Sequence record: OQ411014.1
From: Escherichia phage EJP2
Direction: 5' to 3' (one strand)
Length of the DNA stretch: 64,000 nt
A program made the translations under genes and the position numbers. The notes under the pieces were generated by a model that was not told the origin of the DNA, ran no database searches, and saw only the letters and a program-made list of their open reading frames with translations. Positions 36,323 through 39,234 of this stretch are shown one piece after another. Each line of letters starts with the position of its first letter. The first letter of the stretch is position 1.

Positions 36323-36346
36323 TTTATTACACAGGAGCTATTGACA

Positions 36347-36538
36347 ATGGAAGGTCAAACTTTTTATAATCGCATTCTTGAAGACAAAGCAACGTTCGAC
36401 CGCACGATTTATGATCTTGAACTAATGATTCAAGATGCTCCTAATCCACGCATTCGTACACAAGCTGAACTCGCAAAGAATTATCTAGTACAAGTACAAC
36501 TGATTTGCGATGCACTAAAAAAACATAATAATGATTGA
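36347..36538 (+). CDS. hypothetical small protein
   Basis: Track ORF from TTG 36341; ATG at 36347 with AGGAG RBS. Confidence 0.4.
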   Translation: MEGQTFYNRILEDKATFDRTIYDLELMIQDAPNPRIRTQAELAKNYLVQVQLICDALKKHNND

Positions 36539-36642
36539 CAGTTAGAAAGAAAGACATTATTATACACACATGCACTACAAAGTGGGATGGAAAAGCTATC
36601 CCACTAAAAATTCAAAAACACTATCTGGAGATGTGAATTTAT

Positions 36643-37143
36643 ATGAAATCTATTATTGCCAACAACGAAATTACTGCAACTTCCGTTCGTCTAGTTACTG
36701 AAGGGTCAAGTGAAGTACTGGCAATTGATAAAGCGTTAGCTAAAGCTCGCAATGAAGGTTTGGATCTAATCCAAGTAACTGAACATGATGTTCCGGTTGT
36801 GAAGATTGCTGACCTGAACAAGTTCAAATACGAGCAAAAACAAGCTGAGAAAGCTGCACAGAAGAAGCAACGTGCTAACATCATTCAGACTAAAGAAATC
36901 CAATTCGCTTCAAATACTCAAGAGAATGATCTTGCAGTAAAAGCAAAGAATGCTCGTAAGTTTATCGAAGAAGGTAAACAAGTACATATCGTAATGAAAG
37001 CTGCTGGTCGTTTAGGCACACAAACTGACTCCAACATTGAAACACTAGGGGCGTTTGTTGAACGTCTAGGTGAGAATGTTGAGTTCGTTCAGAAAGTAGA
37101 AGTTCAGGGTAAAAACATCACTTGCACTGTGAAAGCCAAATAA
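36643..37143 (+). CDS. infC: translation initiation factor IF-3 homologue
   Basis: Aligns by eye along the length of bacterial IF3 (EITATSVRL..GLDLIQV..PVVKIADLNKFKYEQKQ..KEIQF..FIEEGK). Confidence 0.85.
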   Translation: MKSIIANNEITATSVRLVTEGSSEVLAIDKALAKARNEGLDLIQVTEHDVPVVKIADLNKFKYEQKQAEKAAQKKQRANIIQTKEIQFASNTQENDLAVKAKNARKFIEEGKQVHIVMKAAGRLGTQTDSNIETLGAFVERLGENVEFVQKVEVQGKNITCTVKAK

Positions 37144-37162: not shown

Positions 37163-37699
37163 ATGAAAAATGAAATCGAGCAACAGATTTTTCAAACGAA
37201 TCCTCTGCCAGTAGTAAAAACTACTTATAAGGATTCAGTATATTACGTCGCGGGTAAGCATGACCTTACTCGTTATGTCGAAAATGTTTCAGCGGCAAAG
37301 AGTGAAGAGTTTCGTGTTGAAGCAGCACTAAAACATCTCATCAATGATCGCCCTGAAGTGAATAAGTTGAATGTTCCAATGTTTGACTTTATTCTTCTCG
37401 ACGACCCAAAAACCACGGCAAACTTCGTTTCAATGTATTGCTATGATGTTCTACATTTTGATGATGACCGTTGTAACGAAGTAATTGAAGCACTGAATAC
37501 AGTAGGTTCTTACTATGTTGGTACTTACAGTGATGAACTCACTCTAACTCTAGCACACCTACTAGAAGAAGCTAACTCCCAACTGGACCAAAATCTAGGT
37601 TGGAATAAGATGGAACGTCAACCAGCAGATGATGCATTAGTTGATGCAATGGTTCTTCTAGAAAAACTAATCGAGCGTGATTACCCGCAAGATCTATAA
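37163..37699 (+). CDS. hypothetical protein
   Basis: Track ORF; AAAGGA RBS. Confidence 0.5.
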   Translation: MKNEIEQQIFQTNPLPVVKTTYKDSVYYVAGKHDLTRYVENVSAAKSEEFRVEAALKHLINDRPEVNKLNVPMFDFILLDDPKTTANFVSMYCYDVLHFDDDRCNEVIEALNTVGSYYVGTYSDELTLTLAHLLEEANSQLDQNLGWNKMERQPADDALVDAMVLLEKLIERDYPQDL

Positions 37700-37709
37700 C
37701 AATAACTAA

Positions 37710-39234
<1,525 letters not shown>

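Follow-up and report, generated by a model that had tools for sequence, protein, structure and literature searches.

Background

IF-3 homologues were reported for the phages CBB, GAP32, 121Q, PBECO4 and RaK2 in the CBB paper of 2017. Iyer et al. (2021) mention IF3 together with a KTSC protein, possibly supporting translation or ribosome rescue, and both these authors and those of the Sharanji paper (PMC11895373) call the role of the phage IF3 unknown. The factor is also phage-borne in unrelated huge phages, such as Atu_ph07, Sinorhizobium phage AP-J-162, Phosso and metagenomic ones, where it was listed among the translation genes by Al-Shayeb et al. (2020) and interpreted as a means to intercept or redirect host translation (Al-Shayeb et al. 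2020; PMC11242549). In the literature searched, authors only speculate on the function of phage IF3s, and neither biochemical nor genetic experiments on any of them were found. Host initiation factors are also acted upon by phage T7, whose protein kinase phosphorylates IF1, IF2 and IF3. The T7-type strategy modifies the factors of the host, whereas Escherichia phage EJP2 encodes an IF3 copy of its own; the aim, a reshaped host initiation, would be the same.

EJP2 is a RaK2-like jumbo phage. We analyzed a 64,000-nucleotide stretch of its sequence record (OQ411014.1), hereafter the window, in which all coordinates count from the first letter. The gene under study is the following:

36643..37143, + strand: IF3 (infC-like) coding sequence, ATG start, 166 amino acids plus stop (profiles, structure and protein identity)

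It is the same gene as those of the other RaK2-like phages (EJP2 protein WEM33376.1; 121Q gp47; RaK2 gp382/ORF153; GAP32_313; CBB_318; PHROG 9787), and these share its length, flanking genes, ATG start and long distance between Shine-Dalgarno sequence and start codon, as well as, in most members, the promoter. The EJP2 lineage differs from the other RaK2-like phages by an extra stem-loop of ~35 nt in the leader and by a loop in the C-terminal domain from which 2-3 residues are missing as compared to the majority. The likeness to bacterial IF3 (E. coli P0A707; PDB 8jsg, 5lmn) includes the two domains, the lysine-rich linker helix, the basic pI and the residues R25, Y75, D106, K110 and R133 (E. 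coli numbering throughout, unless indicated otherwise). The E. coli infC gene is nevertheless unlike the phage gene in several respects: it starts with ATT, it lies in the thrS-infC-rpmI-rplT operon, and its product has an N-terminal tail of 11 residues, Y107 and basic residues at R99 and R131. As compared to the unrelated huge phages, which often carry genes for S21 or L7/L12, IF1 and aminoacyl-tRNA synthetases besides that for IF3, none of these accompanying genes is present in the EJP2 window.

Identity and distribution of the gene

The open reading frame, on the + strand and with an ATG start, lies exactly where the original prediction had placed a 166-residue IF-3 homologue that spans both domains, and the similarity searches bear it out. 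The Pfam profiles IF3_N (PF05198; residues 7-72, 59.9 bits with a cutoff at 26.9, 2.7e-16) and IF3_C (PF00707; residues 81-165, 58.7 bits with a cutoff at 34.8, 5.7e-16) were both matched, as was the NCBIfam infC equivalog TIGR00168 (108.5 bits with a cutoff at 60; model positions 7-163 of 170 covered). The product matched the PHROG 9787 family, 'translation initiation factor', at 4.5e-61 and the IF3 chains of the PDB at E ~1e-18, with nearly the whole length aligned. This similarity is far above chance and the open reading frame encodes a genuine two-domain IF3; profiles, structure and conserved residues all fully support a homology that extends over both domains. The call is correct and at the same time already known: the product matches WEM33376.1 ('translation initiation factor 3 [Escherichia phage EJP2]') with 100% identity, and the gene has been discussed for the RaK2-like phages, so that its identification adds little. 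Both the existing annotation and the published discussion were missed by the original prediction.

The absence of an N-terminal extension, which had been pointed out as well, proved real with respect to the E. coli protein, with its 11 extra residues, but it is no oddity. The alignments with the 171-residue IF3 chains 5me0_Y and 5lmn_X begin at residue 1-2 of the phage protein, and the short N-terminus is therefore ordinary, as it is in many bacterial IF3s.

A tblastn search recovered the gene from 89 phage records, with a match that spans 80% of the protein or more in 86 of them; most of the 86 are RaK2-like jumbo phages and most already annotate the gene as IF-3. A megablast search with the IF3 region against the phage collection gave no match, and one metagenomic contig (L016) shared 3.5 kb with the window at 100% identity. 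The hosts of the carriers include: Escherichia, Klebsiella, Salmonella, Erwinia, Serratia, Yersinia, Cronobacter, Pectobacterium and Xanthomonas. Orthologues that are 52-74% identical and have the same gene order occur in RaK2, 121Q, GAP32, CBB and ~60 other jumbo phages. The order was constant in every member examined: a DHFR gene, an RNase H/Mom-like gene, a gene for a Dda helicase, two small ORFs, the IF3 gene, a ClpS-like gene, a KTSC gene and a virion protein gene. The syntenic position of the IF3 gene is thus fixed across at least five genera.

Could the gene be a mere passenger, captured from a host and now neutral or decaying? That no function has been demonstrated is the sole point in favour. 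The dN/dS ratios of the orthologue pairs that are unsaturated at synonymous sites were 0.065-0.115, which indicates strong purifying selection. No fewer than 86 phage records, and dozens of metagenomic contigs besides, carry it intact and full-length. Its synteny is fixed across phage genera that infect the nine host genera named above, and it has no close relation to any host infC. We consider the passenger reading extremely improbable and, given the conservation data, effectively refuted.

Recent capture of the gene from an enterobacterial host was rejected likewise: the E. coli IF3 is only ~35% identical to the phage protein and the nearest sequences outside the clade come from assorted metagenome-assembled genomes, with at most 43% identity over partial alignments. 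The RaK2-like clade is set apart by a distinct gap in identity (at least 56% within the clade, at most 43% and mostly less than 40% to any other IF3). The IF3s of the unrelated huge phages form separate lineages, 33-38% identical to the EJP2 protein (tblastn) and thus about as distant as the bacterial ones, which implies independent acquisitions.

Fold and functional residues

We modelled the phage protein with AlphaFold2 on the basis of a 45-sequence alignment (mean pLDDT 85.8). The parts that can be distinguished are:

36661..36858, + strand: N-terminal domain of IF3, residues 7-72 (IF3_N match, alignment, strand-strand-helix-strand-strand fold, ββαββ, in the model)
36814..36879, + strand: lysine-rich linker helix, residues 58-79, LNKFKYEQKQAEKAAQKKQRAN (model; contains Y63, the equivalent of Y75)
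36883..37137, + strand: C-terminal domain, residues 81-165, the 30S-binding domain of IF3 (IF3_C match; βαβαββ topology by DSSP on the model)

The best five PDB matches of the model were all full-length bacterial IF3s, mostly bound to the 30S subunit, with TM scores of 0.70-0.82 (0.74-0.82 for the ribosome-bound ones). Taken separately, the N-terminal domain superimposed on 1tif and 6o6d with an rmsd of 2.0-2.2 Å and the C-terminal domain on 1tig and 2ife with an rmsd of 1.9-2.3 Å. The lowest-confidence stretch of the model (pLDDT ~72) is the loop at residues ~121-130 (37003-37032), between the second strand of the C-terminal domain and the next helix; it is the loop that is shorter in EJP2 than in most phage orthologues, and its length equals that in the E. 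coli protein.

Residues R25, Y75, D106, K110 and R133 are invariant in the alignment of the phage clade. R25 (R16 in the phage protein) is retained in 13/13 phage sequences; in E. coli IF3 this residue, invariant in bacteria and functionally important, contacts the elbow of the initiator-tRNA, where Q33 and the conserved R66 have a role as well (PMC9723500). At the latter two positions the phage protein has a serine (Q33), a substitution that also occurs in bacteria, and a lysine (R66, K54 in the phage protein; 13/13 phage sequences). A set of 13 IF3s from outside the clade has 34 positions with a conservation of 75% or more; the phages retain 24 of these, and the overall basic charge is kept (pI 9.1 as compared to 9.5 for the host factor). 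Among the residues of the C-terminal domain that we take to be tied to 30S binding or fidelity in E. coli (R99, Y107, K110, R112, R116, R129, R131, R133 and R168), R112 has become lysine throughout the phage clade, R116 and R129 have done so in all members but one each, and R168 is lysine or asparagine. Less conservative are the clade-wide change of Y107 to leucine and the variable, non-basic residues found at R99 and R131. In addition, the clade has fixed differences at positions that are conserved in other IF3s: R20T, P62V, G71N, K79Q and E159V. Because of these changes, the activity of the phage protein could be altered with respect to the host factor and not equivalent to it.

The substitutions in the C-terminal domain and the fixed differences, together with the wide gap in identity between the clade and other IF3s, are the main grounds for an alternative in which the phage protein is a specialised IF3 that occupies the IF3 site of the host 30S with a changed selectivity. 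It might then act as a competitor that blocks host initiation, or be tuned to features of the phage initiation regions, such as AU-rich, long spacers between Shine-Dalgarno sequence and AUG; the ribosomes would be biased in a qualitative manner, beyond a mere addition of IF3 activity. The five invariant residues, which are those most clearly tied to function, are all intact and the threshold of the NCBIfam equivalog is passed comfortably, both of which argue for an ordinary factor. We consider altered fidelity an unlikely explanation, also in view of the spacer lengths given below, and prefer the reading that the phage makes an active IF3 of the common type.

Start codon and Shine-Dalgarno spacing

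The phage gene and all 21 compared relatives start with ATG. In E. coli K-12, infC starts with ATT within thrS-infC-rpmI-rplT, and this AUU start is the basis of the autorepression by IF3. The comparison of the start codon with that of host infC, as suggested in the original prediction, thus revealed a consistent difference. The surroundings differ as well: E. coli infC is followed by rpmI and rplT and the phage gene by the ClpS-like and KTSC genes, and the infC-rpmI-rplT context is absent.

The ribosome binding site has an unusual geometry:

36627..36630, + strand: Shine-Dalgarno sequence GGAG, 12 nt 5' of the ATG, an unusually long gap

The gap between GGAG and ATG was 10-13 nt in 13/13 IF3 genes compared (EJP2 and 12 annotated orthologues, L001-L012), as against 5-8 nt in 22 of the 27 window genes that have a GGAG. 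In fHe-Yen9-03 and Munch, for which the depositors annotated ribosome binding sites, the longest gap was found at the IF3 gene. The gap is also 10 nt at the KTSC gene; 10 nt upstream of the ClpS-like gene there is no more than an AGGA. The conserved, sub-optimal spacing may serve to limit or regulate the translation of IF3.

That several genes of the IF3 operon, IF3 itself included, have gaps of 10-12 nt would be in line with a factor tuned to long spacers. Most window genes combine an ATG with a gap of 5-8 nt, and the phage would then have no obvious need for a special factor. With an SD-guided heuristic, ~72 of the 75 long ORFs in the window were found to start at ATG, a preference that suits the preferred reading of an ordinary, active IF3 as set out below.

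We considered whether the phage gene might be under AUU autoregulation via the in-frame ATT at 36637, which lies 6 nt from the GGAG and thus at a better spacing than the ATG. This was dropped, because a start-like codon was present at that position in 0/12 relatives and all of these start at the ATG, with MK(S/E)(I/V)IA as the N-terminal sequence (MN-QIIA in XaC1). The ATT comes right after the TGA of a minimal ATG-TGA start-stop, GGAGATGTGA (36630-36636), that directly follows the GGAG, overlaps the Shine-Dalgarno sequence and is out of frame with IF3; it is not conserved in the relatives and probably due to chance.

Promoter and leader

Upstream of the gene a promoter scan identified:

36535..36563, + strand: sigma70-type promoter, TTGACA-17 nt-TATTAT, score 11/12

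The predicted transcription start at ~36570 would give the IF3 messenger a leader of ~75 nt. A promoter scoring 10-12/12 was found at the equivalent position in 10/12 annotated relatives; the sites are weaker (9/12) in XbC2 and Kaldavass, and XaC1 has only a 9/12 site that is placed differently. Sigma70-like matches scoring at least 11/12 numbered 20 on the + strand of the window (19 sites), which carries 71 of the 75 long ORFs, and 0 on the - strand, with ~2 expected per strand. Because of this asymmetry, these sites should represent real promoters. The location of the sigma70-type promoter, inside a block of genes for replication and nucleotide metabolism, suggests that host RNA polymerase probably transcribes the IF3 gene in the early or middle phase of the infection.

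The sites on the + strand include those at 945, 14189, 17435, 21111, 23892, 30408, 36341, 36535, 39269, 50827, 52727 and 54674. Five of these (945, 17435, 23892, 30408 and 39269) have the form TTGAGA-18-TATAAT and may constitute a distinct promoter class. The site at 36341-36370 is a perfect TTGACA-18-TATAAT and lies across the start (ATG 36347) of a conserved 63-aa ORF upstream of IF3. Its TTGAC sits in the spacer between the Shine-Dalgarno sequence and the ATG and its -10-like part is coding (F-Y-N/D); most relatives, from different genera, have the same arrangement, TTGAC ATG ... ~18 nt ... TATAAT/TATGAT. The site could be an internal promoter from which a second, longer IF3 transcript is made.

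The leader contains the hairpin that had been noticed in the original prediction at about 36581-36605, and the inverted repeat AGTGGGAT/ATCCCACT is indeed present there:

36581..36605, + strand: leader stem-loop AGTGGGAT-N9-ATCCCACT, an 8-bp perfect inverted repeat; as RNA it pairs over 10 bp around a loop of 5 nt

The hairpin starts ~11 nt past the predicted transcription start. For the leader segment of 95 nt, the minimum free energy was -19.3 kcal/mol (z = -2.7 with respect to shuffled sequences). Several identities for the element were considered and rejected. It is no intrinsic terminator, since a U-tract is absent 3' of the hairpin, where an A-rich AAAAATTCAAAAAC follows on the + strand, and it was not among the hits of a scan of both strands for terminators. 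It is present as a single copy in the window and hence not a repeated element, and it had no match in Rfam that would connect it to a known RNA family. Nor is it a conserved regulatory element, as it occurs only in the EJP2 lineage: the hairpin is unchanged in the contigs that are 97-100% identical (L013-L016), and absent from those with 73-76% protein identity (L017-L021) and from 12/12 GenBank relatives, which makes it lineage-specific. The leaders in the latter two sets are 19-51 nt long and mostly fold weakly or not at all, with only a small 6-bp hairpin in the Hallingskeid-type leaders. To judge from this distribution, the hairpin is a private insertion of the EJP2 lineage, outside the conserved design of the locus, and possibly a modest stabiliser of the mRNA.

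The independent expression of the phage gene, from a host-type promoter and with an AUG start, would also suit a back-up factor that replaces host IF3 lost during the infection, either by decay of the host mRNA or by inactivation or sequestration of the protein in the course of a defence or stress response. The infection cycles of jumbo phages are long, which is in line with such a role. In a variant of this explanation the phage factor would mobilise idle ribosomes, such as hibernating 70S or 100S particles or 30S subunits with RbfA bound, in hosts that grow slowly or are cold. Concordantly, IF3 is described in PMC7145577 as releasing RbfA and licensing the 30S subunit under stress, and the relative Sharanji encodes a hibernation-factor-type S30EA protein alongside IF3 (PMC11895373). 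A defence system that targets IF3 was not found in the literature searched, and the back-up role overlaps heavily with the preferred explanation, from which it differs only in what limits IF3. We regard it as unlikely and continue with the preferred reading of an active IF3 that is made outside the feedback of the host.

Neighbouring genes

The two genes that follow IF3 were found at the same place in every relative examined:

37163..37699, + strand: ClpS-like adaptor gene, 19 nt downstream of IF3 (20.3 bits with Pfam ClpS, which falls short of its cutoff, 23; PHROG 15940, 8.7e-51)
37764..38327, + strand: gene for a KTSC-domain protein, a putative RNA-binding domain (KTSC, 2.9e-13)

The ClpS-like gene directly adjoins IF3 and is probably co-transcribed with it; the KTSC gene, whose domain was named after the C-termini of lysyl-tRNA synthetases, is the second gene downstream. 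There are no tRNA or tmRNA genes within the 64-kb window, and therefore a local cluster of translation genes beyond IF3 and the KTSC protein is lacking. A Clp component adjoins IF3 in two unrelated groups of jumbo phages (a ClpS-like gene in the RaK2-like phages and clpX in Sinorhizobium phage AP-J-162; PMC11242549), an adjacency that could be a coincidence or reflect a functional link. Topoisomerase genes occur near IF3 both in AP-J-162 and here.

A role for the phage factor

Taking these features together, we think it probable, be it well short of certain, that the phage makes an active IF3 early or in the middle of the infection, outside the feedback of the host, that raises or replaces the IF3 activity on the host 30S subunits. 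In this scheme the gene would be transcribed by host RNA polymerase from the sigma70-type promoter, and its production would escape the IF3 homeostasis of the host because the messenger starts with AUG and not with the autoregulatory AUU. The protein would bind the host 30S subunit and perform the ordinary reactions of an IF3: keeping the subunits apart, recycling, and the checking of start codon and initiator-tRNA. We infer that total IF3 activity would then exceed the level that the cell normally allows, whereby the pool of free 30S subunits would be enlarged and the selection for AUG-initiated messages led by a Shine-Dalgarno sequence tightened. Nearly all window genes are of this kind and would hence be favoured. 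If, moreover, the phage factor discriminates against AUU like the host factor, the translation of host infC would be shut down and the phage factor would progressively replace that of the host. A re-tuning of start-codon selection or ribosome recycling toward phage mRNAs, as put forward in the original prediction, is plausible. A simple model in which the cell is flooded with IF3 fits awkwardly, since the conserved long gap between Shine-Dalgarno sequence and ATG suggests that translation of the gene is weak or regulated.

A more elaborate version, which we find decidedly doubtful, would make the gene a device for outright replacement. The AUG would let it escape the feedback, its action against AUU would silence host infC, and the diverged C-terminal domain would favour phage initiation regions. 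The long spacer would act as a substitute feedback element, and the ClpS-like and KTSC genes would complete an operon for a 'translation and proteostasis takeover', in which the ClpS-like adaptor would perhaps direct host factors to ClpAP.

Conclusions

The IF3 gene of EJP2 is no new kind of gene, as its orthologues have been discussed in several papers since 2017. What is added here is, firstly, the systematic use of ATG in place of the ATT of the host gene, the feature that gives the host its feedback control, and secondly, the recurrence across genera of two features: a sigma70 promoter, which is a strong one in most relatives, and an unusually long gap between Shine-Dalgarno sequence and start codon. 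The leader hairpin is reduced to a lineage-specific extra. Both EJP2 and 121Q infect E. coli, where the genetics of infC are mature, so that the role of the phage IF3 should be easily testable. More generally, core translation factors encoded by phages are relevant to the way in which large phages take over the ribosome.
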